From a phage, in NCBI GenBank assembly GCA_014435945.1, contig GCA_014435945.1_4088.1: a DNA stretch of 64,000 bases; one strand, given 5' to 3'. Below, piece by piece: positions 25,292 through 45,535 of this stretch. The notes below the pieces were generated by a model. The model saw only the letters and a list, made by a program, of their open reading frames with translations. It was not told where the DNA came from and did not search any database. Position 1 is the stretch's first letter, and each line of letters opens with the position of its first letter. Position numbers and translations under genes: made by a program.

Positions 25292-25515
25292 TTACTGCCA
25301 CTGTATATCAAGATATTAATGAAGAATTTAATTCTAAAATTGCATTTTTATCCTTTCCCGTATTGCCAGCTATTGGTGCTACGTTGAATCTTACAATCTG
25401 TGGCTTTGAAAAATACTATGAAGTACTATATATTGAGTACTGTGCAGATGTTTATTCATGCAACAGTGAGATTGCTATTCCTGTGCAAATCGACATTATT
25501 GTAAAAGAGGTTTGA
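25288..25515 (+). CDS. hypothetical protein
   Basis: 75 aa ORF, ATGA overlap. Confidence 0.45.
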   Translation: MITATVYQDINEEFNSKIAFLSFPVLPAIGATLNLTICGFEKYYEVLYIEYCADVYSCNSEIAIPVQIDIIVKEV

Positions 25516-25976
25516 TTATGTTTAAACACTTTCTAGTAATCACTGCTGTTGTATTCAGTACTTCCTGCTTCGTTGCACCAGTACATGCGGAAGACCAGCG
25601 TCAAACAATCAAGACGATTGGAACAGGGAAAGCCCAACCAAAACGTACTGCTGAAGAATACATGCCTGAGATGCGTGAACGTTACCGCCAGCAATACCGT
25701 GAAAAACATGCTAATGATAAGCCTATCAAAAAGCATAAATGGAATGTAGTCAAATCGCCATCGTTTTGTGCTGGGTATGCTAAGGTTAAGGATGAACAGC
25801 ACAACAAGCAGTACTATAAAGATATGTACACATTCTATGATTCGAGGATCTCGGATGATGACATGATGGCTGCTAAGGTTGATAAAGAAGAATTTCTTCA
25901 GGGTTATGACATGACCGATGATGACAAGATCATGGAATGTGTTGAAGTATATGAAAAATACAGAGGTTTTGAATGA
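25512..25976 (+). CDS. secreted hypothetical protein
   Basis: N-terminal signal peptide ending VHAEDQ. Confidence 0.5.
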   Translation: MIMFKHFLVITAVVFSTSCFVAPVHAEDQRQTIKTIGTGKAQPKRTAEEYMPEMRERYRQQYREKHANDKPIKKHKWNVVKSPSFCAGYAKVKDEQHNKQYYKDMYTFYDSRISDDDMMAAKVDKEEFLQGYDMTDDDKIMECVEVYEKYRGFE

Positions 25977-26416
25977 CACTTTTGCTGATTCTAGGTTTAT
26001 TAGTGTCATATTTCATTTTTCTTAACATCTTCTCTGATGCATCACATTTTGCATATGCTTCAGCTATTGCAAAACACGAAGGGATAAAGAAGTATATTCC
26101 TGCATTGTTATTCTCATATATGTACCATCCAAGGTACTTTACACTAGGTGTGTTTGACAAGTATGTATACGACGAAAAAGCACTCAATGAAATTGAATAC
26201 TTTGTAAGAACTCATGCTAATAACAATCCAAAATCATTAATTAACTTTACTGATAATCGTAAACGTGTTAGTATTAGAAGTGACTTGTATCCTACCAGTC
26301 ACTTTCATCTAGGCGATTGTAGTGTGTACAGAGTTAGATACGAAAACTTACTGTTACCACCATCACATATAAGATACATAGAAAAATACTTGTTGAAATG
26401 TGTTGACTCCAAATAG
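25973..26416 (+). CDS. membrane-anchored hypothetical protein
   Basis: N-terminal hydrophobic helix. Confidence 0.5.
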   Translation: MTLLLILGLLVSYFIFLNIFSDASHFAYASAIAKHEGIKKYIPALLFSYMYHPRYFTLGVFDKYVYDEKALNEIEYFVRTHANNNPKSLINFTDNRKRVSIRSDLYPTSHFHLGDCSVYRVRYENLLLPPSHIRYIEKYLLKCVDSK

Positions 26417-26469
26417 TAAATGGCAGTATAATATCTTCGTACCGCAATAACTGACAAGAGGATTTAACG

Positions 26470-26928
26470 ATGGACGTATTAGCTACTCAATTCAAACGCA
26501 ACGCAGAAGAACGTGAAGGTTACCTAAGTATCAGTGAAGTGGTTGAAGATGGATTCAAGCAGTACATTTTCAACAGTGCAATTAAACTGAAGCCAACAAA
26601 AGATTCACCGGATCGCAGCTTCACCAAGTGGATTGCATTCTGGGAAGAGTCACCAATTGCAATCGAAATGACTGTCATTACTACAGTACTGGAAACTGGT
26701 TACATCAAAGCAATTGTAGTTGATAAGAAAGTTCGTACTCTTGATGAAATCGGGACATACCCAGCACGTAACTCTAAAGTATTTGGGTGTTTAGTTGATG
26801 GTAAGTTTATGATTGAAAAAGATGCTAAGAACTATGTAATTGATAAACTACAAACCAGTGCTACTAAACAGGAAGTCGTAGACCAGAACGCAGTGGATGC
26901 TATTAAAAAGGCATGGGGACTGAAATAA
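26470..26928 (+). CDS. hypothetical protein
   Basis: 152 aa ORF. Confidence 0.55.
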   Translation: MDVLATQFKRNAEEREGYLSISEVVEDGFKQYIFNSAIKLKPTKDSPDRSFTKWIAFWEESPIAIEMTVITTVLETGYIKAIVVDKKVRTLDEIGTYPARNSKVFGCLVDGKFMIEKDAKNYVIDKLQTSATKQEVVDQNAVDAIKKAWGLK

Positions 26929-27350
26929 TGTTCACACTTAGCAATGCAAAGTATCTATTTCTTATTGCTATTATTGGTTGGGTTATGGCTCCAGTGCTTA
27001 ATGCACTGGGGTTTCCAGACGGACATAAACTTGTAAATGTTTCAGGTGTAATCCAGGGCATTTCATGGTATTCATTGATTATATTTTCTATATGTATTCA
27101 TACATTTGCACGTGATTGCCGCCGTCTGTTTTTTGTTAAAGTATTCGGTACTAAGAGATATAGTTTTGTGTTTACATTTATTTTAATACCATGTATTATC
27201 TATGCTTTTGTATTTGATTACTATACTTATCTGTGGGTGTGTGGTTCTATGTTTGTTATGTTGGAATATACAAGAACTGTTCAAAACTCATATGCTGATG
27301 AGTATTATGATCTTGAAGTTAAACGAAAATTAACGGAGCTAAACAAATGA
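26928..27350 (+). CDS. integral membrane protein
   Basis: TAATG start; multiple hydrophobic helices. Confidence 0.5.
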   Translation: MFTLSNAKYLFLIAIIGWVMAPVLNALGFPDGHKLVNVSGVIQGISWYSLIIFSICIHTFARDCRRLFFVKVFGTKRYSFVFTFILIPCIIYAFVFDYYTYLWVCGSMFVMLEYTRTVQNSYADEYYDLEVKRKLTELNK

Positions 27351-27772
27351 GGGGATACAATAAGATTTGTATTTTTGTATTTTTAGTTTGTGCAATCAAT
27401 ACATTTGGATATTACTGTACTGAAAACAACATTTCATATGGTTTAAATCCTTTGTGGTTTACAATTGCCAATGTAGCACAAATTGGTATTGCTGTTATGT
27501 CTGCACTTATGTTCTGTCCAATTGTCACTATGGATACTGATCATGAAAGGCTTGGATTTATCCGTGATACTGGAGACGAACCTTACAGTAGATTGATTGT
27601 GTTGTATCCATTTATTGTTATTTTAGGTACTAACATCCAACTTGGGTCTTTATCTAATAGTGTTACTTCAGCAGCCATTACAGTCTTTGCATTCACATTT
27701 TTTATGGTACACAAATCAGTACTCAAATGGCACATCACAAAAATGGCAGAGAAAGGTACGGAAAACAGTTGA
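27347..27772 (+). CDS. integral membrane protein
   Basis: 141 aa; hydrophobic helices. Confidence 0.5.
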   Translation: MRGYNKICIFVFLVCAINTFGYYCTENNISYGLNPLWFTIANVAQIGIAVMSALMFCPIVTMDTDHERLGFIRDTGDEPYSRLIVLYPFIVILGTNIQLGSLSNSVTSAAITVFAFTFFMVHKSVLKWHITKMAEKGTENS

Positions 27773-27831
27773 CGTGAGTTATTGAGAGATATATAATTAT
27801 TACATCAAAACTGGGAAATGGTAAGGAACTT

Positions 27832-28083
27832 ATGAACATCGATAAGGTCAAAGAACTTAGTGAAGCACTAATTAAGAACGAAGAAGCTTGTGAAGAACTT
27901 CGCAGTACTATCAAAGTTGAGTACGCACGTCTTCAAGCTATGCTTCAGGAATCCGAATGGGTAGTAACTAAATCTATCGAAGCAATCTATAAGGATATCG
28001 AATCCCTTTTCAACAAGAAAAGTAAGATTGAATCTGATTCATACAATAAGCGTAAAGAATTAAATTCGGCACTCGGTATCTAA
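27832..28083 (+). CDS. hypothetical coiled-coil protein
   Basis: 83 aa. Confidence 0.5.
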   Translation: MNIDKVKELSEALIKNEEACEELRSTIKVEYARLQAMLQESEWVVTKSIEAIYKDIESLFNKKSKIESDSYNKRKELNSALGI

Positions 28084-28157
28084 AAGTATTTGACTTAACC
28101 AATGACATGGAGTACATTGTACTCCTACTTTATTCAAAAGCCTAAAAGGAAAACATT

Positions 28158-28418
28158 ATGAAATCTATTCTCGTTGCTGTAAACCTGGTTGCTTCTCCAT
28201 CTTTCAACTTCAAACAAGTTGTTGCTGATAACCTGAAGAACATTTGCCCTAACGCTGAATTGACTTTCTGTGTGTTTGATTCAGAAAAAGTAACTAAAGT
28301 TGATCTAAACTATCTTTTGAACGAAGTACAAAGTATTTCTGGTGAAAGTAATTTGGAAGTACTGAATACGGTTGCTGATGACTATGATGATACACTGGTA
28401 ATTTCGGAGAAATTCTAA
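28158..28418 (+). CDS. hypothetical protein
   Basis: 86 aa. Confidence 0.5.
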   Translation: MKSILVAVNLVASPSFNFKQVVADNLKNICPNAELTFCVFDSEKVTKVDLNYLLNEVQSISGESNLEVLNTVADDYDDTLVISEKF

Positions 28419-28423
28419 ATCCA

Positions 28424-28843
28424 ATGCTTAGATTTATACATTACTTAATCAGTAAGTTCTTTGGTTATTATACTATTGAAGGTAAAGCTACGCTTGCACA
28501 TAAAATCTTTGTAGCATTATGTGTGGGTGATTATGACGTATTGAATAAGTACTGTAAATCTAAAGCATGTATTGACATAATGGCACTTCGTATCTATGAG
28601 TGTCAGTTCAATAGATATAATTTTTACCAGTACAGATATGATAAAGATGATTTTGATAGCATTAAAATGCTAAAGAATTTATGTAATAATAAAAAGAATA
28701 TGCATATATCTGAATTTGTTGCATTGTATTTTTATTTAAAAAGTTCATTATACATGAATACACTTAAACGCTTCGATCCTGGAATTAATGTATTCAACGA
28801 TAAAGAATTTTATATCTATGATAAATTTTTAGATAAGGTTTAA
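28424..28843 (+). CDS. hypothetical protein
   Basis: 139 aa. Confidence 0.5.
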   Translation: MLRFIHYLISKFFGYYTIEGKATLAHKIFVALCVGDYDVLNKYCKSKACIDIMALRIYECQFNRYNFYQYRYDKDDFDSIKMLKNLCNNKKNMHISEFVALYFYLKSSLYMNTLKRFDPGINVFNDKEFYIYDKFLDKV

Positions 28844-28844
28844 T

Positions 28845-29342
28845 ATGACGACTGTTTATATTGATAAACGCTTGGGAGTATTACTTACTGATTCAAAAGT
28901 GACATCAACTGAGCAACGTTCATTTTTGAACCTATTCCCGTTGAAGCCAAAACTTAGTTATGGTGTAGTTTCACAAAAAACATTGTATGTACACGACCGA
29001 CTGTTTAGTGCTTGCGGTGAGGTTAGTGAAATTAACAAAGTACTGAGATACTTGATTTCACAAGAGACTGTGATACCAGACCGCAAGGCGAGTTGTCACT
29101 GTGTTCTTGTGTCAAAAGATTACATCATTCACTTAATCGTTAATAAGGGTAAGTTTACCAAGAAGATTGATTATCTCCATAATGATTATACATTCTTTAT
29201 GGGTAGTGGTGGTGAATACATGCTTGATGCAGCAGTACATGAAGAGTGTAATACTCTTCTTGATAAGGTATTTGATACCTTCATGGATGTTCATAACCAT
29301 GATATCTATACCGATGATAATATTAATGTATACCGTTTTTGA
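28845..29342 (+). CDS. hypothetical protein
   Basis: 165 aa. Confidence 0.5.
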   Translation: MTTVYIDKRLGVLLTDSKVTSTEQRSFLNLFPLKPKLSYGVVSQKTLYVHDRLFSACGEVSEINKVLRYLISQETVIPDRKASCHCVLVSKDYIIHLIVNKGKFTKKIDYLHNDYTFFMGSGGEYMLDAAVHEECNTLLDKVFDTFMDVHNHDIYTDDNINVYRF

Positions 29343-29364
29343 TTTCATTCATTAGGAGAAGTAA

Positions 29365-30330
29365 GTGAAAAAGCTTGATTTAAATGCAATTTCTGAAGAA
29401 GTACTGGATGAGTGTTTTGCTAGTGAAGAAGTCAACGTATTAGAGGCTCTTGATTCCGTCGAAGAAGAAGAACATGACGGTCACAAGTTTGAGAAACCAA
29501 AAACAGGTATCAGCTTAACTCGCCCTAAAGGGATAACGAATGAAATGCTCATCCAAGCAGTGCGTGATGGCATAGACGTTGAAAAGAACATTGACCTTTT
29601 GGTTCGCTACAACTATCCAATGGTAGTAAGTGTTGCACGTAAGTGTACATGTTTTATCCCATTTGAAGATAAGATTTCTTATGGTGTTGAAGGTTTAATG
29701 CGAGCAATTCATACGTTCGACACTACCAAAAATGTTAAGTTCATTACATATGCAACAACAACTGTGTACATGACAATCTATAACGAAAGTGCAGATGCTA
29801 ATTATCTAGTGCATTTCCCACGTTATATGAGTGTTAATAACATTTATGTGAAACGCTGTGTAGAAGAGTATCAAATGAAACATGGTAAATACCCAACTCC
29901 TGAGATGGTGTCAAAAGAGACTGGTATTGAGATTCAACACGTTAAGAATTGTCTAACTTACAATAACACTTATGTAGCATTGAATATGAAAATGAGTAAT
30001 GATTCAGAAAGTACATTATCTGACATTGTTACTTCAGTTGAACCTGATTACAACTTAGGCGTAGAAACTGTCAGTACCCCACTGGTACAAAGTATTGCAG
30101 AAATGATGAGTAACCTATCTGCCAAAGACCGTGAATTGATTGAACGTGTACATGGTATTGGTTCTTATTCTGAACCAGAAACGCTACGAGAAATCATTGA
30201 GAGTGGTTTTGAAGATGAGAAGGGTAAGGTCATGACTGCTCGTTCTTCATTGCACCGTAAGTACTCTGAAGCAATGGAACGACTGCGTAAGATGGTTAAG
30301 ACAAAAGGTTATGAGTTCGAAGATTTTTAA
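29365..30330 (+). CDS. sigma-70 family RNA polymerase sigma factor (phage-encoded)
   Basis: Region-2-like YGVEGLMRAIHTFDTTKNVKFITYATTTVYMTI; region-4-like C-terminal helix-turn-helix; GTG start after AGGAG. Confidence 0.65.
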   Translation: MKKLDLNAISEEVLDECFASEEVNVLEALDSVEEEEHDGHKFEKPKTGISLTRPKGITNEMLIQAVRDGIDVEKNIDLLVRYNYPMVVSVARKCTCFIPFEDKISYGVEGLMRAIHTFDTTKNVKFITYATTTVYMTIYNESADANYLVHFPRYMSVNNIYVKRCVEEYQMKHGKYPTPEMVSKETGIEIQHVKNCLTYNNTYVALNMKMSNDSESTLSDIVTSVEPDYNLGVETVSTPLVQSIAEMMSNLSAKDRELIERVHGIGSYSEPETLREIIESGFEDEKGKVMTARSSLHRKYSEAMERLRKMVKTKGYEFEDF

Positions 30331-30337
30331 GATTAAA

Positions 30338-30364
30338 GGGTTGACTTCTGTCAGCCCTTTTTTT
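30338..30364 (+). terminator. intrinsic terminator (cassette variant without -10)
   Basis: GGGTTGAC-TTCT-GTCAGCCC followed by TTTTTTT. Confidence 0.7.
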
Positions 30365-30898
30365 ATGGGACAAATTTATTAATGGTGATACAATGATCTA
30401 TGTACAATCACAATGACAGTACTGGTACTGACAATCTTCCCCTACTTCACTTGAAAATGTAAAGGATAGATGAGCTTTTCATTGTAGCGAACAGCAAAAG
30501 AAACCCGTTAGATGTGGGCATAGTTTGAACCCCTCACGGCAATGCGGCTGTATAAAGAACCACGTTAGGATAGCTGGTGGTTCCTCGATAGACATATAAG
30601 GATAACACCTTACGAATTATCTAAGGGAGAGTTATCGAATTTTGTACAGGAAAGTTGCGTCCAAAATTTGAGTACTCACATTAAGTATTTGATTGCATAG
30701 ATACTTAATGAAGATACACTATGTTTAAAAGTGTAGACCGTCATATGAAACTGAAGTAGAGAGAAACAGGATGACCCGCTTTCGCACTCATTATGAGTAA
30801 TCTTCAATGCAATAGCTCTGATACCATCAGCGTCAAATTCCCCTCCATGTGGGGGGAAGAAAAATCCCTTCCTCAAATCCCGTCAATATTAAAAGTCC

Positions 30899-30927
30899 TT
30901 GACAGTTATGATTCATTCGCGTAGAAT
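30899..30927 (+). promoter_or_regulatory. sigma70-like promoter
   Basis: TTGACA, 17 bp, TAGAAT. Confidence 0.5.
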
Positions 30928-30991
30928 ACGTAGTATTAGAAGCGAACAGACATCTCGAAGAGATGGATGATTAACCACTAAGGAATATCTA

Positions 30992-31201
30992 ATGAATTCA
31001 GTAATCTTTTTAATTATTGCTCTTTCACCACAATCTGGTGTACAAATCACCCCAATGAATTCAATGAATCAATGCATTGCAGTACGTGACAGTACGTATG
31101 AACAAGTAAACAGCGTTTCACTTAGAACAGTTGGTGAAGAATTAATGTGGTGTTACAATAGCAATACTAAAGAGAAACTAATTGTTGGACAAACTAAATG
31201 A
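30992..31201 (+). CDS. small secreted/membrane protein
   Basis: 69 aa; hydrophobic N-terminus. Confidence 0.45.
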   Translation: MNSVIFLIIALSPQSGVQITPMNSMNQCIAVRDSTYEQVNSVSLRTVGEELMWCYNSNTKEKLIVGQTK

Positions 31202-31425
31202 GTTATGGTGTTCGTTTTGAGATTCGTTCTATTGTTATCAATGATGAGAAACAAGCATCGTTGGATGGCGATATACGAGAACTATATCTATCATGTATCC
31301 GTGCAAAATCTGAAGCAGATGCATTATCACAAATGATTGGTTTTAATTTCTTTCATGGATACTATTTGGTACGAGTTATCGAAGTTAAAAAAGTCACTTT
31401 TGAGTGTCTTGCAGGAGAAATATAA
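31198..31425 (+). CDS. hypothetical protein
   Basis: 75 aa; ATGA overlap. Confidence 0.45.
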   Translation: MSYGVRFEIRSIVINDEKQASLDGDIRELYLSCIRAKSEADALSQMIGFNFFHGYYLVRVIEVKKVTFECLAGEI

Positions 31426-31426
31426 A

Positions 31427-32221
31427 ATGAGCACTATAGATGAATTGATTCGCCGGAATTCAAAATACTACGACCCATCAGAAATTGTTGGCAACATTAC
31501 TAAATCTGAGTTCGGCCCAAATACTCGAAAACTCATTCATGTAATGTCACGTGATGGCTTTAAATGTGATTGTTGTGGTGAATCCAATGTGGTATTCACT
31601 TTACATAAACACAGTACTAAAGACCGTTATAAATTCAGACCTTATGTACTTAAAGGGAAACGCCTTGTACGCATGACGTTAGACCATAATGTACTGGACT
31701 GTCTTCAGGGCGGTAATGATAAAGAGAACATGACTGCACTGTGTGAAGATTGTAACGCATTACGCCAGCATAAGTTCGCTGAGTACAGTGAGTTTAAACA
31801 CTGGTATCATAACGCTGATCGTTCTATCGAGCCTGACGTTAACTACTGCTTTATTGAGTATATTAAGAATGCTAAAGATACATACATTCTTAAATCAATG
31901 TCACCTATTACAGTGTTCCCTGAGAATCTATTCAGTACTATGCAGCGTGATTTTAAACGTGGTATCATGAATGCATTCAAACACTTAGACAAAGGTATCA
32001 AGCACTTTGAGGTGCAATGCTTAAATGAAGGAATGAATCGTTTAGTACAAATTTACATGAAATCATTTATAGGTGTTGACACCGCACGTCTACCAGTATA
32101 TAATTACTTCATTGAAAGCGAAGAAGGTGAATCACTTCGTGATTATGGTGAAAGATTTAATAATAAAGTTTTCACTGCAATCGCAAACGAGATTCATTAC
32201 TATAAACCGTATGTAATTTAA
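31427..32221 (+). CDS. HNH endonuclease domain protein
   Basis: CDCCGES...LDHNVLDCLQGGNDKENMTALCEDCNALRQH (zinc-knuckle HNH motif); ATG 31427 after AGGAG. Confidence 0.7.
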   Translation: MSTIDELIRRNSKYYDPSEIVGNITKSEFGPNTRKLIHVMSRDGFKCDCCGESNVVFTLHKHSTKDRYKFRPYVLKGKRLVRMTLDHNVLDCLQGGNDKENMTALCEDCNALRQHKFAEYSEFKHWYHNADRSIEPDVNYCFIEYIKNAKDTYILKSMSPITVFPENLFSTMQRDFKRGIMNAFKHLDKGIKHFEVQCLNEGMNRLVQIYMKSFIGVDTARLPVYNYFIESEEGESLRDYGERFNNKVFTAIANEIHYYKPYVI

Positions 32222-32845: not shown

Positions 32846-33154
32846 ATGTTTCAAACTAACACTCAAGGTTTTGTAATCATCGATTTGAACCAAAACAGCG
32901 GTTATTGGATGAAACCTACTGACGCATGTATGCAGTTTGATTTTTTAGGTTACAGGATTAGTGTAAGTACTGGTGCTTCTGTACTGAGAGGTGGTTGTAT
33001 CGTTGAACATCTGGTAACTGATCCAGAAGGTCGTGAGTATGAAATCGCAGGTTCAGTACAAGATGCCATTATGTTTGTATGTCAGCGTGAAATGAATGGT
33101 TCGAATTCAAATGCACTGACTCATGCTCTTTCTCAAGAAGTGGAGGTTCGTTAA
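32846..33154 (+). CDS. hypothetical protein
   Basis: 102 aa. Confidence 0.5.
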   Translation: MFQTNTQGFVIIDLNQNSGYWMKPTDACMQFDFLGYRISVSTGASVLRGGCIVEHLVTDPEGREYEIAGSVQDAIMFVCQREMNGSNSNALTHALSQEVEVR

Positions 33155-33399
33155 TGAAATATATCGTAGCAGTACTCGTAGCATTTTTACTCACTGCATG
33201 TGATGCTTCAACCAAAGAACGCACAAGTGATTTTATTCTCCCGACTGAATTAAAAGAAGCCGGATGTAAGATTTATCGTATGCAAAAGGACGGTGCTGAC
33301 GTAACCTTGTATACAGTTTATTGTCCTAATGCAAATACAAGTACTGGATACACTAGCGGTAAAACACGAATCAACACTTCCGTAATTCATGGAGAATAA
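33154..33399 (+). CDS. putative lipoprotein
   Basis: Signal peptide with lipobox LLTAC. Confidence 0.55.
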   Translation: MKYIVAVLVAFLLTACDASTKERTSDFILPTELKEAGCKIYRMQKDGADVTLYTVYCPNANTSTGYTSGKTRINTSVIHGE

Positions 33400-33401: not shown

Positions 33402-33770
33402 ATGAGCCTTGATACAACACGTGTAGCAGGTGATTTAACTCGTCTGAATAATGAAGAATTTCTTGCTGAAATAAAGTACAAGCTTGAAAAACTGGCACGA
33501 AGTGCTGAAGTAATTGAAGTTGAAGGTCACTTACCAATGGACCAATTCCATACGTTCAACGAAGATATGGTTTATTATCCAAATGAAATTTGGATTGAGT
33601 GGGAGTCATGGACTAACAATGTTCTCCGAATCGAAGGGTATTGTGTGAATTATGAATCTGAACCTGGTGATGTTACAAAAACTCTCTCAATTTGGTGTAC
33701 AAAAACACATGAACTAGTTGAGGTGAATTTGAATTATATGAAGGGCTTCCGTTGGGGTGATGTTCAATGA
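33402..33770 (+). CDS. hypothetical protein
   Basis: 122 aa. Confidence 0.5.
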   Translation: MSLDTTRVAGDLTRLNNEEFLAEIKYKLEKLARSAEVIEVEGHLPMDQFHTFNEDMVYYPNEIWIEWESWTNNVLRIEGYCVNYESEPGDVTKTLSIWCTKTHELVEVNLNYMKGFRWGDVQ

Positions 33771-34042
33771 TTAAAAAACTATTGACTGTGGTCTTTGTAT
33801 TCTGTACAATGTTTCTTACAGCATGTAATGATGACGGCAGGTTTAGTGCAAAAGACTTAGTTCGTCAGGATTGTACATTCACAGGTAAGTCTTTTATTAA
33901 CGAGTATGAAATATGTACACAATCAGGTCGTATCTGTGGTGGTTGGGAAAAACGTCAGGAGCGATTGTATGTATATGAATGCCCTGGACATCTCAACAAA
34001 GTACTAAGCACACACAAACTTGTTTATGATAAGGTTGAATAA
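33767..34042 (+). CDS. putative lipoprotein
   Basis: Signal peptide with lipobox FLTAC. Confidence 0.55.
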   Translation: MIKKLLTVVFVFCTMFLTACNDDGRFSAKDLVRQDCTFTGKSFINEYEICTQSGRICGGWEKRQERLYVYECPGHLNKVLSTHKLVYDKVE

Positions 34043-36466: not shown

Positions 36467-36699
36467 TATTGAGTTTTGTAGTCGCATTATTGTTTATGTT
36501 CTACCCTACACTAGTAGCAGTAGCCACTAAACGAAAGCTGGTGGATATCACTACGGTATTCTTGCTAAACGTGGCACTCGTTCTAGTGTCTATTATCATT
36601 CCCGTGAACTTTACGGTTATTGACATGGCATCTGTATTACTATTCGTCTTCAGTTATCTTATGCTTATTGAAGAAAAACCTGTTGACAAACGTTTGTAG
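36457..36699 (+). CDS. small membrane protein
   Basis: 80 aa; two TM helices. Confidence 0.5.
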   Translation: MYLVLSFVVALLFMFYPTLVAVATKRKLVDITTVFLLNVALVLVSIIIPVNFTVIDMASVLLFVFSYLMLIEEKPVDKRL

Positions 36700-36710
36700 T
36701 ACTGTATAAT
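36683..36710 (+). promoter_or_regulatory. promoter, GTACTG-TATAAT class
   Basis: TTGACA-AACGTTTGTAGTACTG-TATAAT, overlapping end of upstream gene. Confidence 0.5.
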
Positions 36711-36757: not shown

Positions 36758-37084
36758 ATGTTATCAGTTCTAATTTCAATTCCTGCTCTAATTCTGTTAT
36801 GGGTTATGGTTTTCGAATTCTTCATTAAAGACGAAACCGAGCGTGATGAGTTTCGTGAGTTGTTTATGTTAGACTCACCCATTGCACGAATCTTCTTCGT
36901 TGTAGTACTTATTTCAGTACTGTCATGGTTAGTAAGTTTTGTATTACCAATTGGACCATTTGTTTCAATTATGAATTTAGTTGAGAACATTGTTGGTATT
37001 GTATGGTTTACTAATGCATTGTTTGCTGGTAAAGTTTCCATTTGGTTTGATATCTTGAAAGATAAACTAACTAGTAAGAAGTAA
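36758..37084 (+). CDS. small membrane protein
   Basis: 108 aa; hydrophobic helices. Confidence 0.5.
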   Translation: MLSVLISIPALILLWVMVFEFFIKDETERDEFRELFMLDSPIARIFFVVVLISVLSWLVSFVLPIGPFVSIMNLVENIVGIVWFTNALFAGKVSIWFDILKDKLTSKK

Positions 37085-37162
37085 CGTTCAAAAAGTCTCT
37101 AATAGTATTAAATACTTCTGTACAAATAATATGTGCAGAAGTATTGCTCGTTAGAGGTTATA

Positions 37163-37528
37163 ATGAAAAAATATATAAGAATGATAATGGTGTTTGTAGT
37201 ATTCATGCTTTATTCAAGGTTCAGTACAGCCGTACCTGCTTACCTTGATTGTATGGGAAACGATGGAACATGGCATGTACTTTCTAATGACCCACAAAAT
37301 GGAAACAATATTGTCGTAGATGATGAGGTTTACCGTTTCAGGGCCGAGAGTTTGATTGGGAATAAAAAGGTATCGACATATAAATCAGATGCTGGTATAA
37401 TAGCAAATGTAATATTGATAGTGGACCCCAAGACAAAGGATGGGGATATTTACATAGTCATTTATCAAGATTCGTCGAATAAACGCGATCAGGACATTGA
37501 TAAATTGAATATTCATTGTGAACTGTAA
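37163..37528 (+). CDS. secreted small protein with Cys pair
   Basis: ATG 37163 after GAGG RBS; signal peptide; Cys near both ends of mature protein. Confidence 0.5.
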   Translation: MKKYIRMIMVFVVFMLYSRFSTAVPAYLDCMGNDGTWHVLSNDPQNGNNIVVDDEVYRFRAESLIGNKKVSTYKSDAGIIANVILIVDPKTKDGDIYIVIYQDSSNKRDQDIDKLNIHCEL

Positions 37529-37538
37529 GGTATAACAA

Positions 37539-37922
37539 ATGATAAACGATGTAATGCTTTATGTATTAATTACTCCGATTCTTATTAACTCAGTAATAAC
37601 TATTTCAATGGCATTATTTGGTATAGTAGCAATTGTTTATGCTGTTAGTACTGGAAAGTATACTTTAATTAGTAAGGTTGATTCATGGTTCGCATCTGAT
37701 AGTGTACCATATTCAGCTAGTATGATTACGATTGGTATTCTAATCGTTGCATTTACACTGCACTGTATTGGTTTTATTAATACAAGTATTTTTTCAGTTT
37801 TTATTGGTCTATCATTATATCCATCACTTTGGTACTTGATTTATGTAACCGATGTTTGGTATAATAACTACAAGCAGTACAAAGTGAAGAAATCCATTTT
37901 ATCCAAAGGAAACAAATCATGA
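37539..37922 (+). CDS. integral membrane protein
   Basis: 127 aa; 3-4 hydrophobic helices. Confidence 0.5.
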   Translation: MINDVMLYVLITPILINSVITISMALFGIVAIVYAVSTGKYTLISKVDSWFASDSVPYSASMITIGILIVAFTLHCIGFINTSIFSVFIGLSLYPSLWYLIYVTDVWYNNYKQYKVKKSILSKGNKS

Positions 37923-38269
37923 AAGTAATTTTGTTTTTTGTTTGTATGATTATATGTGGTATGTCTTATGCAGAACCATTACCTGGACTAGTCTGTACTG
38001 AAGGTGATATTAAACACATTTACCAAGGTGATAGCGATGACCATACTATCGTTTATATCGACGGTGAAGTGTATAATTTTGTTAAAGAACATACCGTAGG
38101 TGACATTAGTTTTACGCAGTACTCGAACGATACTGATCCCAATATGCTTGCATTTCTTCAAGTTGATGTATATGAAGATAGTAATGGCGAACAGTATGTT
38201 AAACTTGTGATGATGCGTAAGGCAGCAAAACAGGCAACATTCGGTGGCTTGTGTAAATATGAGGACTAA
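37919..38269 (+). CDS. secreted small protein with Cys pair
   Basis: Signal peptide ...SYAEP; VCTEG...GGLCKYED. Confidence 0.5.
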   Translation: MKVILFFVCMIICGMSYAEPLPGLVCTEGDIKHIYQGDSDDHTIVYIDGEVYNFVKEHTVGDISFTQYSNDTDPNMLAFLQVDVYEDSNGEQYVKLVMMRKAAKQATFGGLCKYED

Positions 38270-38273
38270 ACAT

Positions 38274-38465
38274 ATGTTGATTTATCAATGTGATAACATT
38301 CGTGTTATGCAGCATCCCTACTTACAAATCTTTGATGTGCAGCAGTATATGGAAGGTGATGACCCAAGAACCTATGGTCGTAAGTATGATTACTTCACTG
38401 TAAAGCAGTGTCGTAACATCAAAGAAGTACGACAATTAGTTCAAGAACTTCAAAATAAAGGTTGA
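38274..38465 (+). CDS. hypothetical protein
   Basis: ATG after GAGGA RBS; stop codon inside downstream TTGACT. Confidence 0.45.
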   Translation: MLIYQCDNIRVMQHPYLQIFDVQQYMEGDDPRTYGRKYDYFTVKQCRNIKEVRQLVQELQNKG

Positions 38466-38491
38466 CTTCGGTCAGCCTTTTTTGTTATAAT
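38457..38491 (+). promoter_or_regulatory. terminator-promoter cassette
   Basis: AAAGGTTGAC-TTCG-GTCAGCCTTT hairpin with T-run; TTGACT ... TATAAT. Confidence 0.65.
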
Positions 38492-39934: not shown

Positions 39935-40159
39935 ATGAAATATCTAGTACTAGTACTGCTATTCTTGAGTACTGTTGTATGTGCTAAACCAAAGTATCAT
40001 GTAGTGTGTATCAACGAGATGGAAGGATATACTGAAACATATAAGAACCATATTGTTGAAGTTGCAGCCCAAGGTTCCTATGGGACCATCATCTTCCTTA
40101 AGAACAATGTGATTGTTCAGTACAAAAAAGATTCAAATTGTAAAGTGACTAAAAATTGA
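39935..40159 (+). CDS. secreted small protein with Cys pair
   Basis: Signal peptide; VVCINE...NCKVTKN. Confidence 0.5.
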   Translation: MKYLVLVLLFLSTVVCAKPKYHVVCINEMEGYTETYKNHIVEVAAQGSYGTIIFLKNNVIVQYKKDSNCKVTKN

Positions 40160-40229: not shown

Positions 40230-40466
40230 ATGGAAACTATAATCATCATATGTGCGTTGTTTGCATTTTTGGTAATGTGGTCACCAACATTCATTGCATA
40301 TAAAATGAAAAATAAAAATGCAGAAGCAATTATGTACGTAAACTTATGTTGCATACTAACTTATGGAATACTTTTATTCTTTACTGAATTTACATTAATC
40401 CCAGTAGTAGTTTGTTCATCAATGTTTATTTGGTTGTTTCTGCTTTATGAATCTATTAAAAAATAA
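40230..40466 (+). CDS. small membrane protein
   Basis: 78 aa; hydrophobic. Confidence 0.5.
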   Translation: METIIIICALFAFLVMWSPTFIAYKMKNKNAEAIMYVNLCCILTYGILLFFTEFTLIPVVVCSSMFIWLFLLYESIKK

Positions 40467-40520
40467 AAGATATAGGGTTGGTAATATGCCATCCCTTTTA
40501 CTTTATGTGGGGTTTAATTA

Positions 40521-41093: not shown

Positions 41094-41106
41094 CTGGAGA
41101 TGTAGT

Positions 41107-41550
41107 ATGGGTTGGATTAACGTTAATAGCATTGAGCTAAATGAGCAAGACATATTTGCCTTTGTTAATTTGGTAGAGAACATTGCTATTAAAGGTCGTC
41201 TGTTTAGTTCATCGGACGGTAAAAAATGGATCTCTCTTATGAACGACAATGGCGAGATTTATGACGTTATGCAACTACCTCATTGGGCTTATAAGAATAC
41301 ATCTGATGATGTGATGGCTGCTGTTATGCGTGAGTTTGAGAAGCTGCCAGGTGGTGATATTAAGAACATCGTATTCAATGCAGAACGCATGAACTACACA
41401 CCAGAGCAGCTTCAACAGTTGGCAATTGCTGCCTATCAAGCTGCCATTAAGAAACCTGAATGTGTGATATTAAAGTACACACCGGACTTGAAGTTAACAC
41501 TAGAAGATATGGATTCCTTTATCTTCAGTTCAGAACTTAAACAGTACTGA
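41107..41550 (+). CDS. hypothetical protein
   Basis: ATG 41107 after GGAG (track start 41074 overlaps upstream gene). Confidence 0.5.
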   Translation: MGWINVNSIELNEQDIFAFVNLVENIAIKGRLFSSSDGKKWISLMNDNGEIYDVMQLPHWAYKNTSDDVMAAVMREFEKLPGGDIKNIVFNAERMNYTPEQLQQLAIAAYQAAIKKPECVILKYTPDLKLTLEDMDSFIFSSELKQY

Positions 41551-41661
41551 TTTGACTTTGGGACAACCATTTCTTACGTGATATAATCTTAAGTGTCTGT
41601 AGAAATAAACAGCACATGAAGTATAAATATTAAAGTAATTTATCTCTTTAAGGAGTATGAA

Positions 41662-42045
41662 ATGGTTGATAAATGGAATAAGAAAGATCCATCGCATGAT
41701 GTGGATATTTCTGGAATTGATAATGCACATAAGCATAAGTATCTTGATTCACTAGGTCTACTAAAGCCTGACCAAAGTCTTGCACATGATCGTCCTTCAC
41801 GTGAAAAAGCTTTCAGTCTAGAATCACTAGGCCATGAATTGAATCGTGTATTTGAAGATCATCCAATTTATGTACGTGATATCATTGAGAAACTTAAAGT
41901 GACTCCTAAAGAGCACTTCAAGGCAACAGTACACGCAGCATTCCGTGCACTACATGAAGCACTAAAGAAAACTCATAACCTTCGCAAGATTCATGATGAC
42001 ATCGTGAACTCTATTGAAGGCGAAAAACATAAGTTTAAAAAATAA
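41662..42045 (+). CDS. hypothetical basic protein; shares SLGLL motif with 42893 gene
   Basis: KYLDSLGLLKPDQ motif; AAGGAG RBS. Confidence 0.55.
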   Translation: MVDKWNKKDPSHDVDISGIDNAHKHKYLDSLGLLKPDQSLAHDRPSREKAFSLESLGHELNRVFEDHPIYVRDIIEKLKVTPKEHFKATVHAAFRALHEALKKTHNLRKIHDDIVNSIEGEKHKFKK

Positions 42046-42051
42046 TTAAAA

Positions 42052-42085
42052 GGGGTTGACTTCAGTCAGCCCTTTGTCGTATAAT
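42052..42085 (+). promoter_or_regulatory. terminator-promoter cassette
   Basis: GGGGTTGAC-TTCA-GTCAGCCC, T-run, TATAAT. Confidence 0.65.
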
Positions 42086-42132
42086 ATTTTCATCAAGTGA
42101 TACAAAATACAAACAACGTGAGGTATTAAATT

Positions 42133-42246
42133 ATGCAAGGTACTAAATTCATCATCGCTGCCCTAATCGCTGCTGTTGTAGTGGGTACAGTATGTTATTC
42201 AATTGACACCTATATCAATACACCTAGTGTTGAACAAACCAAATAA
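42133..42246 (+). CDS. small membrane peptide (37 aa)
   Basis: Below track cutoff; GAGG RBS; one TM helix. Confidence 0.3.
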   Translation: MQGTKFIIAALIAAVVVGTVCYSIDTYINTPSVEQTK

Positions 42247-42254
42247 GGGATATC

Positions 42255-42518
42255 ATGGCTGAAACATTATCACTATATGCGTTAGTACTGTTATTTGTCG
42301 GATTTCTTCCTGCACTCATTACAGCCATTCGTGTTGTTAAACATGAAGCTGCATTGATTGTATGTAGTATTGGGTCGAACATTCTATTGTATTTCTTTTT
42401 GACAAATACTATTGTACTGTTTGCTTTCTTTATCATGATTCTGTGGGTACTTGTAATTCTCGGATTCTTCATTTGGTCATTGGTTGATCCTAAGAAAAAA
42501 ACAGGAGAAGTGAAATGA
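42255..42518 (+). CDS. small membrane protein
   Basis: 87 aa; hydrophobic helices. Confidence 0.5.
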   Translation: MAETLSLYALVLLFVGFLPALITAIRVVKHEAALIVCSIGSNILLYFFLTNTIVLFAFFIMILWVLVILGFFIWSLVDPKKKTGEVK

Positions 42519-42811
42519 AATTAATTATAGCAATGATGATGTGTTTGGCTTTCCCTGTACTGGCTACTCCTAATCTGGACTGCACACTGTTGCGTTCAGA
42601 TGGTGACACACTTGAAATCAACACATATGAACTCTTTGGTCCAAGTGTAGTGGAGAATGAAACCACCTACAATTTCAAAGCTATTGACTTTGAAGGTAAT
42701 GTTCCAGTACTAACTACAATGACTATTGACAAAACTACTTTACTCGGACGAATCACCACACAACGCGGAGAAAGTAAAACATTCACAGCGAAAGCTGACT
42801 GTAACTACTAA
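42515..42811 (+). CDS. secreted small protein with Cys pair
   Basis: Signal peptide; LDCTLL...KADCNY. Confidence 0.5.
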   Translation: MKLIIAMMMCLAFPVLATPNLDCTLLRSDGDTLEINTYELFGPSVVENETTYNFKAIDFEGNVPVLTTMTIDKTTLLGRITTQRGESKTFTAKADCNY

Positions 42812-42832
42812 TGGTATAGTACAGTGAAAATA

Positions 42833-42871
42833 GGGTTGACTTCGGTCAACCTTTTCTTTATACTATAAATA
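42833..42871 (+). promoter_or_regulatory. terminator-promoter cassette
   Basis: GGGTTGAC-TTCG-GTCAACC, T-run, TATACT followed by TATAAATA. Confidence 0.65.
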
Positions 42872-42892
42872 TAGTCATAGAGAATAAACAAT

Positions 42893-44404
42893 ATGAAATC
42901 TATGGAGAGAAATCAAATGCCAGGTCAATTTACTGATAAAAATGGCGGGAACATGGCAGGTCACTCTGATAAATGGAGTGAACGCAATCGTCGTCAAAAT
43001 AGCTACCAAGCAGGACAGGGGTCACGTGGATCACGTAATCAAGGGACAGGTTTAGCTGGTAAGGCAAACGCAGAAGCAGGTGAAGTTAAGAGTACTGAGA
43101 ACATGACTGAGCTAGAAAAGCTACGTTATGTTAACTCATTAGGTCTTCTTAACGCAACACAGAAACAACGCCTTGCTGATATGGAACGTGCTGAGAAAGA
43201 ACAAGCAGTTCCTAAAGAAGAACCAAAACCAGAAGCTCCTAAAGCAGCTAACCCTGTTAAAGAGTTATCTGATAACTTAGGTAAGATCTTTGCTAACAAA
43301 CCACAGTTGATTCAGGGTATTGTCAAAGCACTACAGGCAGTTCCTAAAGAAGAACTCAAAGGTAAAGCACAAGCTGTACTTGATGCAATGAAAGGTAATA
43401 AGAGCACTGAACCCACTGAAGTATTCAGTACTATCATGCGTGCACTTGAAGGTACACACAAAGAAGATTCGAAAGAACCTGAACAGGGTGAAGCAAGTCT
43501 TGATGGTATTCTTAAAACTTTTGATAGTATTGGTAAAGCAGACCGTGCTAATGCCCAGCAAATCAAGAATGTACTGGCTAAACTTGAAAACCGTTTAGAA
43601 GGTAAAGACGATAAGGTTAAGCTCGTATCAGATGCAGTTAACAGTGCACTTAAATCTTATGTACAAGGTGAGAAAAGTCGCTTCGTAACAGCTATGGATG
43701 CTGCATTCAACACTATGAAAAAGTATGAAGCAGAACATGGTGAGAAGGTAACACCAGATGGTTATCTAAAGCGTGCAGATGAAGAAGGTGCAGTTGAACA
43801 GAAAGATGTAGAACCTGAACAAGAAGATCTACCTGATACCGTTGATATGGATGGATATATTCATCGTCCTGAGATGGAAGAGTTTGGGTCAGATAAAGAA
43901 GGTTTTGAACATGCAATGGCAGTATATAAAGCATTAGTTAAAAATCCAGATTATGCTAACCGTTTTGTTGACGAGTTTGATAGTGCATGGAATAACTACA
44001 AAGACAAAGGTTATGACTTCCCTGCTGAAGCTGCATTCTTTGAACTTGGTAAACTATTAGCTAAACATGGAATTGACGTTGGTTCATCTGATTCCGAAGG
44101 TATGGAAGAAGAACATCTTGAAATGACCGATAAATCAATTCATGAACTTCAAAAGCTAATGATGTGGATATCCGAGATTGGTAAAAAAGCAGGTGCTGAT
44201 AGTAAAAGTATCAACAAAAACATTAGTTGGATTAAAGATAATGTTGGTAACAATGCTCGTAAACTACAAAAGGCGTGGGCTGATTTAGTAAATGGTGCAG
44301 ATGATGTTGACATTGAATCACCAGAAGCATATGAGTATGCACTAACTACACTTGATAACTCATTCAAAGAGTACGACCGTGGTGTTGGAAAAGATAAAAA
44401 ATAA
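42893..44404 (+). CDS. large acidic/lysine-rich protein with internal repeats
   Basis: 503 aa; AVPKEE repeated; SLGLL motif; highly charged and low-complexity. Confidence 0.6.
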   Translation: MKSMERNQMPGQFTDKNGGNMAGHSDKWSERNRRQNSYQAGQGSRGSRNQGTGLAGKANAEAGEVKSTENMTELEKLRYVNSLGLLNATQKQRLADMERAEKEQAVPKEEPKPEAPKAANPVKELSDNLGKIFANKPQLIQGIVKALQAVPKEELKGKAQAVLDAMKGNKSTEPTEVFSTIMRALEGTHKEDSKEPEQGEASLDGILKTFDSIGKADRANAQQIKNVLAKLENRLEGKDDKVKLVSDAVNSALKSYVQGEKSRFVTAMDAAFNTMKKYEAEHGEKVTPDGYLKRADEEGAVEQKDVEPEQEDLPDTVDMDGYIHRPEMEEFGSDKEGFEHAMAVYKALVKNPDYANRFVDEFDSAWNNYKDKGYDFPAEAAFFELGKLLAKHGIDVGSSDSEGMEEEHLEMTDKSIHELQKLMMWISEIGKKAGADSKSINKNISWIKDNVGNNARKLQKAWADLVNGADDVDIESPEAYEYALTTLDNSFKEYDRGVGKDKK

Positions 44405-44410
44405 ACATTT

Positions 44411-44446
44411 AAAAGGTTGACTTCGGTCAACCTTTTTTTGTAAATA
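44411..44446 (+). promoter_or_regulatory. terminator-promoter cassette (weak -10)
   Basis: AAAAGGTTGAC-TTCG-GTCAACCTTTT perfect hairpin, T-run, TAAATA. Confidence 0.6.
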
Positions 44447-44475
44447 TTGTAGAGGGTTTTATAAGAGGTAATGCA

Positions 44476-44727
44476 ATGTTTAAATATGTTTTATTTTCAC
44501 TTGTATTGTTTGCTGATATAGTTTATAGTACTGAATACCAGTGCTCCATTGCTAGACAGGAGTTTAGAAACGGTGAGTTCTATACCAAGTCTTACACTAG
44601 AGGATTGGTACATGACAATAATAAAACTATAGGGTTCAATGCATTTGATAACAAAGATCGATATACGTCTGGAATACTATCTGAACGTAAGTCGGATATA
44701 CTAGGTATCGAGCGTGAATTCCGGTGA
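44476..44727 (+). CDS. secreted small protein
   Basis: Signal peptide MFKYVLFSLVLFADIVYS. Confidence 0.5.
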   Translation: MFKYVLFSLVLFADIVYSTEYQCSIARQEFRNGEFYTKSYTRGLVHDNNKTIGFNAFDNKDRYTSGILSERKSDILGIEREFR

Positions 44728-45055
44728 CACGGTTGCAATGTGTAATGATATTGAGAGTACTAAGAAAGTATATACTAATGGTGAAACTACCTTTAGATTC
44801 CACAATCTTACTACTAATGAAAGTTTATACTTCTACAACTGTAAAGAGTTCATTAAACCTGTGGATAACTCATGTGATATGCCGGAGCCAAAAGCTGCTG
44901 TATGTGAGGAACCACAATCCAAAGCTGACAAATCGGATAAAAAAGAAAACAAAAAGAAAGCTAAAGATGATAAAGATAAAAAGTCCCCTAAGCCAAATCC
45001 ATTTGAAAAGCCAAAGAATGAAAAGCCAAAACCAGACATGACATGTAAAATATAA
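44714..45055 (+). CDS. hypothetical protein with Lys-rich tail; start uncertain
   Basis: Track start is GTG; alternative ATG at about 44738; KKENKKKAKDDKDKK tail. Confidence 0.4.
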   Translation: MNSGDTVAMCNDIESTKKVYTNGETTFRFHNLTTNESLYFYNCKEFIKPVDNSCDMPEPKAAVCEEPQSKADKSDKKENKKKAKDDKDKKSPKPNPFEKPKNEKPKPDMTCKI

Positions 45056-45062
45056 AAGAAAA

Positions 45063-45095
45063 GGGTTGACTTCGGTCGGCCCTTTTTGCTATAAT
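45063..45095 (+). promoter_or_regulatory. terminator-promoter cassette
   Basis: GGGTTGAC-TTCG-GTCGGCCC, TTTTT, GC, TATAAT. Confidence 0.7.
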
Positions 45096-45121
45096 CATTT
45101 CATCAACTACTGGAGGCAAAC

Positions 45122-45535
45122 ATGTTAAAAGTTATTTTCCGTTCTATCAGTTCATTACTTCTTATGATTAGTTCAGTTTGTTATGCAAATGAAGTATCTG
45201 ATTTATTTGAGAAGAATTACCCAACTGCACAAGAGATGGGTGTTTTAAAATGCAAGCTAACTTCGTACAACATCATCGGCAGTAAACTTGTACTGGAACA
45301 TGAACGTAGTACACCAATCCCTCTAGTAGAAGAAGGCAGTACCTTTAGCTTCAAGTACGGGGTGAACGTAACATCTGGTGTAATGAACAATGTTGATGCA
45401 GAGACTGGTTCAACATGGAGTACTAGCGGTAAAGATGTGTTTCATCGTATGCGTGAAAATGGTAAACTGAAGTACGTATATGAAAGTTCATTCATGAAAC
45501 GTGTATTCATTATAAAAAATTGTGTACCAGCATAA
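45122..45535 (+). CDS. secreted protein
   Basis: Signal peptide ...SSVCYANE. Confidence 0.5.
   Translation: MLKVIFRSISSLLLMISSVCYANEVSDLFEKNYPTAQEMGVLKCKLTSYNIIGSKLVLEHERSTPIPLVEEGSTFSFKYGVNVTSGVMNNVDAETGSTWSTSGKDVFHRMRENGKLKYVYESSFMKRVFIIKNCVPA

Follow-up and report, generated by a model that had tools for sequence, protein, structure and literature searches.

Small, putatively exported proteins, including predicted lysozyme-inhibitor-like barrels, in an early-type gene block of an Asteriusvirus jumbo phage

Why would a virulent jumbo phage carry, within one block of small genes, a whole series of proteins that appear to be addressed to the envelope of its host? The question is raised by positions 25512-45535 of a 64,000-nucleotide stretch of phage DNA (NCBI GenBank assembly GCA_014435945.1, contig GCA_014435945.1_4088.1), referred to here as the window, which is DNA of an Asteriusvirus, a 121Q/RaK2-like jumbo coliphage. 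A 21-kb stretch of it shares 98% identity with Escherichia phages CMSTMSU, fEgEco12, and vB_Ec-M-J and approximately 85% identity with 121Q and PBECO4, which are Asteriusvirus jumbo myoviruses of 350-385 kb. The small genes of the region are densely packed on one strand, and related records call nearly all of them "hypothetical protein." Judged from sequence, nine or more of the small proteins are probably exported to the host envelope. For a minimum of two of these, the predicted fold is that of bacterial periplasmic lysozyme inhibitors, a likeness that makes them candidates for blocking rival phages. Orthologues were compared in 121Q, JNE01, and RaK2; CMSTMSU and TH47 were left out of hotspot mapping, as both are flagged UNVERIFIED and the gene calls of CMSTMSU are fragmented.

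Small proteins with signal peptides and terminal cysteines

A preliminary description of this DNA had listed ten genes with signal peptides. We evaluated the small genes with a self-written test of the n-, h-, and c-regions. To pass, a protein had to have K/R but no D/E in its n-region, 8 or more uncharged residues forming a hydrophobic core, and either a -3/-1 site or a lipobox; proteins with a later transmembrane (TM) segment were excluded. Nine of the ten listed genes passed, namely all of the following except 30992 (a slash marks the predicted cleavage site; aa, amino acids; ORF, open reading frame).

25518..25976, + strand: putative exported protein; signal peptide MFKHFLVITAVVFSTSCFVAPVHA/E; charged mature chain of 128 aa; conserved Cys 60 and 117; PHROG 36332, function unknown.
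30992..31201, + strand: doubtful member; 121Q annotates a shorter ORF beginning past the hydrophobic stretch.
33154..33399, + strand: predicted lipoprotein, lipobox LLTA/C, Asp at +2 (C-D-A-S); PHROG 902 family, uncharacterized.
33767..34042, + strand: predicted lipoprotein, lipobox FLTA/C; mature chain of 72 aa with 5 Cys; Asn at +2 (ambiguous); PHROG 31263, function unknown.
37163..37528, + strand: putative exported Cys-pair protein, predicted beta-barrel, paralogue A; mature 98 aa, with Cys at mature positions 7 and 96 of 98.
37919..38269, + strand: putative exported Cys-pair protein, predicted beta-barrel (AlphaFold2 model), paralogue B; mature 98 aa, with Cys at mature positions 8 and 94 of 98.
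39935..40159, + strand: putative exported Cys-pair protein; mature 57 aa, with Cys at mature positions 8 and 52 of 57; 51% identity to its 121Q orthologue.
42515..42811, + strand: putative exported Cys-pair protein; mature 81 aa, with Cys at mature positions 6 and 79 of 81; small closed beta-barrel in AlphaFold2; absent from 121Q.
44476..44727, + strand: putative exported protein; mature 65 aa, single Cys, no lipobox despite a "lytic conversion lipoprotein" record.
45122..45535, + strand: putative exported Cys-pair protein; mature 115 aa, with Cys at mature positions 22 and 112 of 115 (a pair absent from the preliminary list); most diverged of the set.

The lipoboxes reported earlier for 33154 and 33767 were found in both genes (LTA/C) and are kept in their orthologues. 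A Shine-Dalgarno sequence stands at the right spacing before all nine starts except that of 33767, which overlaps the upstream stop codon. Across 121Q, JNE01, and RaK2, the orthologous signal peptides drift in sequence while their character is retained, which is the behavior expected of real signal peptides. The test was passed by 9 of the 45 small genes in the region and by only 1 of 80, a dubious one, elsewhere in the window (Fisher p = 4e-4), with control rates of 0.6% for shuffled proteins and 6% for ORFs in non-coding frames; the enrichment of signal-peptide genes in the region is real. The tenth gene, 30992, has a hydrophobic N-terminus and two Cys that are conserved, but it lacks both a basic n-region and a cleavage site, and its place in the exported set is doubtful. 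The first gene keeps its signal peptide with a corrected start, the annotated ATG at 25518 lying two codons 3' of the TTG at 25512 chosen originally. An eleventh candidate, 28158, was rejected, as its N-terminus (MKSILVAVNLV; MKDILIAVDGS in RaK2) resembles the beginning of a cytoplasmic beta-strand and has no proper hydrophobic core.

The preliminary description had also noted that several mature proteins carry one Cys near each end, and this observation is borne out. Five mature proteins contain exactly two Cys placed in this way (37163, 37919, 39935, 42515, and 45122), the chance probability per Cys placement being 0.004-0.03, and both residues are invariant in every orthologue of the five, even at 40-50% identity. 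Four others depart from the layout: 44476 has one Cys, 33154 three, and 33767 five, and the two Cys of 25518 are internal. A single family defined by a conserved Cys pair was not recovered, however. Only 37163 and 37919 could be aligned as paralogues (hhalign probability 91%, E 1e-6); all-against-all blastp and hhalign comparisons with orthologue-enriched profiles found no similarity of 42515, 39935, 45122, or 44476 to these two or to each other, and the lipoproteins are unrelated to the barrels. In blastp, a tiny database gave a hint of homology of 42515 to 37163 (E 0.004), which the profiles did not bear out. The "conserved Cys pair" thus appears, at the level of sequence, to be a common layout and not a single alignable family.

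Predicted structures bear on the suggestion of a disulfide-closed secreted fold. An AlphaFold2 model of the mature 37919 alignment (predicted local distance difference test score, pLDDT, 86.3; predicted template modeling score, pTM, 0.76) has eight beta-strands, with Cys8 in the first (6-10) and Cys94 in the last (90-96), and the 37919/37163 family is confidently predicted to be an 8-stranded beta-barrel. The best matches of this model among Protein Data Bank (PDB) structures were PliC, MliC, and PhiA, with generic barrels close behind (haemoglobin linker, 8.5; BtaiB, an immunity protein of the type VI secretion system [T6SS], 7.8; Cap15, 7.7). The MliC sequence in PDB has one Cys in EYQCDEK and one in LNNCQLQ, which is the same layout as in 37919, and the PhiA barrel is stabilized by Cys76-Cys154 (PMC8334348). 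A disulfide between the first and last strands would close the phage barrels in the same manner. The model of 37919/37163 is consistent with a disulfide-closed fold; 42515 gave a similar small closed barrel in AlphaFold2, confident in 1 of 5 models, and can only tentatively be regarded as a small barrel of the disulfide type. As a separate observation, the 121Q orthologue of 37163 (14025-14384 in the 121Q locus) has a possible lipobox, ALFS/C, replacing the signal peptidase I site, a difference reminiscent of that between MliC, a lipoprotein, and PliC, which is soluble.

Database searches added little to these predictions. Scans of all candidates against Pfam, PHROGs, and NCBIfam returned no informative family; the matches comprised PHROGs of unknown function, a marginal Cor match, and a sub-threshold TrbK entry-exclusion match dominated by the lipoprotein signal, and for the lipoproteins NCBIfam gave only sub-threshold matches to lipoprotein signals. 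Public records nevertheless attach functions to several genes: 33154 is called "Cor superinfection exclusion protein" or "lytic conversion lipoprotein" (Cor-like in OQ718158), 33767 and 44476 are called "lytic conversion lipoprotein," and 40230 and 42255, two membrane-protein genes described below, are called "immunity to superinfection." For 33154, the match to PHROG 1119 (Cor; E 0.0015) covers residues 1-50 only, and the best match of the protein is to PHROG 902 (function unknown; E 3e-14); no Cor match was found for 33767 in the PHROGs scan. The match of 40230 to Pfam Imm_superinfect (PF14373; E 0.014, 15.7 bits) lies below the cut-off of 27.9, which leaves the "immunity to superinfection" label weakly founded, while 42255 has no match to this Pfam family and PHROGs returned nothing for either protein. 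These public labels are poorly supported, and we advise caution in using them.

Gene units, promoters, and divergence

The arrangement of the genes suggests when they are expressed. With approximately 7 expected per strand, the window has 32 sigma-70 promoters that match the consensus in 11 or all 12 positions on its + strand (window 1-52000) and none on its - strand, an excess that makes the block look as though it is transcribed early by host RNA polymerase. Such a distribution implies a very long, multi-promoter block read by that enzyme. The elements and neighboring genes on which the argument draws are as follows (nt, nucleotides).

36683..36710, + strand: perfect match to the sigma-70 promoter consensus (TTGACA, 16 nt, TATAAT), heading the five-gene unit 36758-38465.
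36758..37084, + strand: opens the unit; encodes a small polytopic membrane protein conserved as far as RaK2.
37539..37922, + strand: small polytopic membrane protein, with a stop codon that overlaps the 37919 start (ATGA).
38274-38465, + strand: ORF of 63 aa, fifth gene of the unit.
38457..38491, + strand: predicted hairpin terminator (38457-38480) ending the unit; its stem has a -35-like TTGACT, followed by TATAAT for the next unit.
40230..40466, + strand: membrane protein with 3 TM segments, adjoining 39935; absent from 121Q.
42054..42085, + strand: putative hairpin-plus-promoter element (TTGACT, 18 nt, TATAAT) heading a variable slot.
42133..42246, + strand: ORF of 37 aa with a single TM segment (MQGTKFIIAALIAAVVVGTVCYSIDTYINTPSVEQTK) and a good Shine-Dalgarno sequence; in 121Q the sole gene of the slot.
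42255..42518, + strand: membrane protein with 3 TM segments and a stop codon that overlaps the 42515 start; 121Q and JNE01 lack it.
42832..42864, + strand: putative hairpin terminator/promoter element ending the slot.
44415..44432, + strand: hairpin element 5' of 44476.
45064..45095, + strand: putative hairpin-plus-promoter element (11/12 consensus match) 5' of 45122.

Between the promoter at 36683-36710 and the terminator at 38457-38480 lies a unit of five genes, in which membrane-protein genes (36758 and 37539) alternate with those of the predicted barrels (37163 and 37919) before the final ORF at 38274-38465; the order 36758-37163-37539-37919 is kept in relatives as distant as Klebsiella phage RaK2. 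A gene for a small polytopic membrane protein adjoins four of the five Cys-pair genes, and two of these pairs overlap by stop and start codons. No paralogy was detectable among the membrane partners, which leaves tandem duplication of a two-gene module unsupported.

The units are punctuated by an 18-nt palindromic element, GGTTGACTTCGGTCAACC, which occurs in nine copies (at 30339, 38460, 42054, 42834, 44415, 45064, 49360, 49943, and 51390), all on the + strand, against 0.01 expected. It consists of a terminator-like hairpin with a -35-like TTGAC inside the stem, then a -10 box, and is conserved in 121Q, JNE01, and RaK2; by sequence it looks like a combined terminator and promoter that punctuates early gene units. 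Copies of it lie on either side of the 42255/42515, 44476, and 45122 units. The slot at 42054-42834 holds the 37-aa TM ORF alone in 121Q, the same ORF together with 42255 and 42515 in the window, and a barrel gene alone in JNE01. Judged from consensus matches to promoters and terminators, these slots may be swappable accessory units resembling morons.

The barrel family has a narrow distribution. The 37919 family forms 8 clusters among 5.8 billion proteins, and an exhaustive HMMER search of 1.84 billion representatives with the joint 37919/37163 profile gave 9 matches and no relatives outside the phage lineage; one marginal match fell in a 1969-aa protein (E 3.7e-4). All tblastn matches to the genes came from Asteriusvirus- and Alcyoneusvirus-group phages of Escherichia, Salmonella, and Klebsiella. 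The 33154 family is, by contrast, widespread, occurring in 572 phage records that include FelixO1-like, V5-like, and Vibrio phages, all annotated as hypothetical. The Cys-pair genes are the most diverged in their neighborhood, with a median non-synonymous divergence (dN) from 121Q of 0.43, compared with 0.06 for cytoplasmic neighbors (Mann-Whitney p = 0.002). Identity between the 45122 protein and its 121Q counterpart is approximately 41-44%, varying with the alignment used (dN 0.57). For 39935, BLAST missed the JNE01 counterpart, which only a profile recovered (hhalign 90.8%), although the flanking genes are 70-78% identical.

Several other features of the window were recorded alongside these genes. 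Two tandem arrays (45832-46867 and 52288-54727) encode paralogous-looking small membrane proteins of approximately 104-123 aa with 2-3 TM segments, which are highly divergent (26-38% identity to JNE01). Between 44476 and 45122, the gene at 44738-45055 encodes a protein whose C-terminal half is a Lys/Pro/Asp-rich low-complexity sequence (KKENKKKAKDDKDKKSPKPNPFEKPKNEKPKPD); the gene product shares only 49% identity with the 121Q orthologue, and the JNE01 locus examined contains no match. The phage sigma-factor gene (29365-30330) is mosaic, with 59% identity to 121Q and 88% to JNE01, its neighbors showing the reverse. Past it, approximately 660 nt (30331-30991) contain no convincing ORF, no tRNA, and no Rfam match above noise; pseudo-tRNAs are annotated elsewhere in the RaK2 syntenic locus (11650-11736 and 12542-12617). 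An HNH endonuclease gene with a small 5' gene (31198-32221) may be an insertion of a mobile homing endonuclease, as BLAST found no match to either gene in the syntenic loci of JNE01 and RaK2 that were examined; a perfect sigma-70 consensus lies within the HNH gene at 32076. A reading of 33154, 33402, and 33767 as a spanin or lysis cassette was set aside, as 33402 has no TM segment. Farther upstream, a tRNA cluster (14065-18038; Arg, Ser, Met, and Asn) includes three tandem copies of tRNA-Thr(tgt).

Envelope-directed exclusion and its alternatives

Taken as a whole, our tentatively preferred interpretation is that the region encodes an early, exported battery of proteins whose main effect is the exclusion of superinfecting related phages. 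Its parts differ in strength: export and the predicted structures are probable, and superinfection exclusion as the specific function, which is argued by analogy, is a guarded proposal. Under this interpretation, host RNA polymerase would transcribe the early block of small accessory genes, the host Sec machinery would export at least nine of the proteins, and the lipoprotein pathway would handle 33154 and 33767. The Cys-pair proteins would be oxidized in the periplasm, where 37163 and 37919, and tentatively 42515, would fold into 8-stranded barrels of the MliC/PliC/PhiA architecture with their first and last strands clamped by a disulfide. The barrels would be co-transcribed with small inner-membrane proteins, some of the units being swappable, and the envelope of the infected cell would be altered or guarded so as to exclude chiefly superinfecting related phages. 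The barrels might bind a part of the virion that acts in the periplasm, such as a tail-associated peptidoglycan hydrolase, the tail tip, or the tape-measure protein, and their membrane partners might act at the inner membrane, together forming a functional analogue of T4 Spackle plus Imm on a different fold.

A number of observations weigh against this interpretation. Sequence matches to MliC/PliC were absent in a Pfam hmmscan (E<=1), a PDB hmmsearch, and hhalign comparisons with three MliC/PliC sequences (<1%), and a conserved SG..[YF], corresponding to the lysozyme-binding motif SGxxY, was found in no phage family, the only instance being a non-conserved SGDAF in one 121Q orthologue. PhiA, which likewise lacks the motif, failed to inhibit its proposed target in vitro (PMC8334348). 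The signal-peptide calls depend on a self-made heuristic, early timing is read from consensus promoters only, and the functional role is assigned by analogy. The pairing of barrel and membrane-protein genes is not obligatory: the JNE01 orthologue of 42515 stands alone, the 121Q orthologue of 39935 occurs without 40230, and 45122 has no membrane neighbor. Gene-wide positive selection is not supported, as synonymous divergence (dS) is saturated and dN/dS does not exceed 0.4 at the Cys-pair genes; the pattern is more in keeping with a mosaic exchange of ancient, strongly diverged alleles maintained by purifying selection than with demonstrable positive selection.

Among the competing explanations, the one that survives best, although we regard it as improbable, treats the proteins as generic small secreted binders with unrelated roles in host takeover (periplasmic chaperones, Tol-Pal, stress sensors, or small ligands), in which the Cys pair is a mere stabilizing staple and no common function exists. 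The barrel fold does serve many functions (as in avidins, lipocalin-like proteins, and designed barrels), sequence homology joins only 37163 and 37919 among the families, and the set is heterogeneous, with a 128-aa protein that looks helical, a single-Cys protein, and lipoproteins. Shared regulation, clustering, variable slots, and high divergence nevertheless suggest that one selective arena is common to the set.

Control of lysis or of hydrolases is less probable again. In this explanation, the barrels restrain the endolysin, the tail lysozyme, or host lytic transglycosylases, or they form antiholin/holin-like pairs with the membrane proteins and so time lysis. The periplasmic RI of T4 works with holin T in the timing of lysis, the fold of the phage barrels is of the lysozyme-inhibitor type, and PhiA, the closest motif-less relative by fold, is proposed to regulate an endogenous T4-lysozyme-like autolysin. 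Barrel genes also adjoin small membrane-protein genes, with overlapping stop and start codons. These membrane partners, however, match no holin family, related records annotate no lysis genes in the stretch, and the consensus sigma-70 promoters suggest early and not late expression, while divergence and variable presence suit accessory conflict genes more than a core lysis clock.

An equally small likelihood attaches to receptor masking or envelope remodeling from the periplasmic side in the style of T5 Llp and T1/phi80 Cor. In this case the lipoproteins, and possibly the barrels too, would attach to receptors in the outer membrane or to transport machinery and prevent productive adsorption of progeny and rival phages to infected cells or debris. 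This explanation is relevant mainly to the two lipoproteins, 33154 and 33767, which carry genuine lipobox motifs. Such factors are common in virulent phages and usually lie beside receptor-binding protein genes (PMC11990801), which is not the position of the genes described here. Llp is a small disulfide-containing lipoprotein that blocks FhuA, and 33154 has the weak Cor match and Cor-like record noted above. That match is mostly to the signal peptide, however, the Asp at +2 of 33154 predicts inner-membrane retention and not outer-membrane targeting, its family occurs in phages with very different receptors, and the barrels are predicted to be soluble, with no lipid anchor.

Considerably less likely are immunity-like binders that shield the infected cell, throughout the long latent period of a jumbo phage, from toxins active in the periplasm, for example colicins, animal lysozymes, or peptidoglycan-hydrolase effectors of T6SS: the motif that engages c-type lysozymes is absent, the family is limited to one phage lineage, and the literature searched held no precedent. 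The last alternative, that the hydrophobic N-termini are AT-rich chance or uncleaved membrane anchors and the Cys positions coincidental, is very improbable, as it can draw on the 6% pass rate of non-coding-frame ORFs in AT-rich DNA but must face a pass rate of 20% in the region against 1% outside it and 0.6% for shuffled proteins, the low chance probability of each Cys placement, the conservation of signal peptides and both Cys in orthologues only 40-60% identical, and a confident barrel model that puts the Cys in the first and last strands.

If an early exclusion battery is the correct interpretation, its most specific form would be that Asteriusvirus and Alcyoneusvirus evolved, or captured and diverged past recognition, barrels of the PliC/MliC type as an early periplasmic and exchangeable multi-layer arsenal, which would act with inner-membrane partners against the tail lysozymes or entry machinery of rival phages. 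It would represent a second, structurally independent solution beside Spackle/Imm and the first phage-encoded members of the lysozyme-inhibitor barrels; in this full form we consider the proposal unlikely. The literature searched contained no description of these proteins or of phage-encoded MliC/PliC-like barrels. Molecular understanding of superinfection exclusion by virulent phages is limited to a few proteins (T4 Spackle and Imm, T5 Llp, and Cor), and jumbo phages are under development for therapy and for cocktails, in which exclusion between phages matters. The locus offers a compact and testable set of candidates, comprising the conserved membrane/barrel/membrane/barrel operon and the bracketed slots of one or two genes. 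Should the barrels inhibit peptidoglycan hydrolases of phage or host, the MliC/PliC structural class would reach viruses and provide new, specific muramidase inhibitors; should they act otherwise, they would still be lineage-restricted, fast-diverging envelope effectors of an under-studied group of phages.

Comparison with known systems

The closest structural comparison is with the MliC/PliC proteins (PF09864, which includes Brucella PhiA, with Neisseria ACP related by fold), whose eight-stranded antiparallel barrel is matched by the phage model. PliC has an N-terminal Sec signal peptide and MliC a lipobox, and 37163, 37919, and 42515 have signal peptides that were recognized by our test and are conserved in orthologues; the layout of Cys in the terminal strands is shared by the 37919 model. 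In MliC/PliC, the SGxxY loop, along with the TKG region, inserts into the active site of lysozyme, and both motifs are absent from the phage proteins. Unlike MliC/PliC, the phage barrels are encoded by a virulent phage, lie in early-type units beside membrane-protein genes, and are confined to Asteriusvirus/Alcyoneusvirus. Because sequence matches and the SGxxY loop are absent, the phage barrels are best described, on the basis of the model, as MliC/PliC-like in architecture and not as members of the family.

In their organization, the units invite comparison with morons, which are independent promoter-gene-terminator accessory units in phage genomes (PMC3594210). The units of 42255/42515, 44476, and 45122 are similarly bracketed by the repeated hairpin element, and the content of one slot varies among relatives. 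Classical morons belong to temperate phages and are expressed from the prophage, whereas those described here lie in a strictly virulent jumbo phage, inside a long, same-strand block of early type.

The lipoproteins recall T5 Llp and T1/phi80 Cor, which are small, early phage lipoproteins acting on the periplasmic side, and the lipobox motifs of 33154 and 33767 are genuine. In E. coli, lipoproteins with Asp at +2 avoid the Lol sorting pathway and are retained at the inner membrane. The Asp at +2 of 33154, which is conserved in 121Q and JNE01, predicts such retention and sets this protein apart from Cor and Llp, as do the occurrence of its family in phages of diverse receptors and the position of the genes away from those of receptor-binding proteins.

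In function, the nearest known counterpart may be the exclusion system of the virulent myovirus T4. It is already known in general that virulent phages export early envelope-modifying and exclusion proteins, and with T4 Spackle and Imm as precedents, the export of so many small proteins is notable for its local enrichment more than as a principle. Spackle (gp61.3), which is made early, is small and periplasmic, has its signal cleaved off, contains one disulfide, and inhibits the gp5 tail lysozyme of superinfecting phages (PMC7677548), and Imm is a small inner-membrane protein that binds the tape-measure protein and blocks DNA entry (bioRxiv 10.64898/2026.03.06.709160). PDB sequence searches, which included the Spackle entries, returned nothing for the 37919/37163 profile, the 45122 profile, 25518, 33154, or 33767. 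Spackle is an alpha-helical bundle, whereas the phage models obtained here are all-beta, and the genes of Spackle and Imm are not adjacent. What the window appears to share with T4, as judged from sequence, is the combination itself: small periplasmic proteins of the disulfide type and small polytopic membrane proteins, both under promoters of early type.

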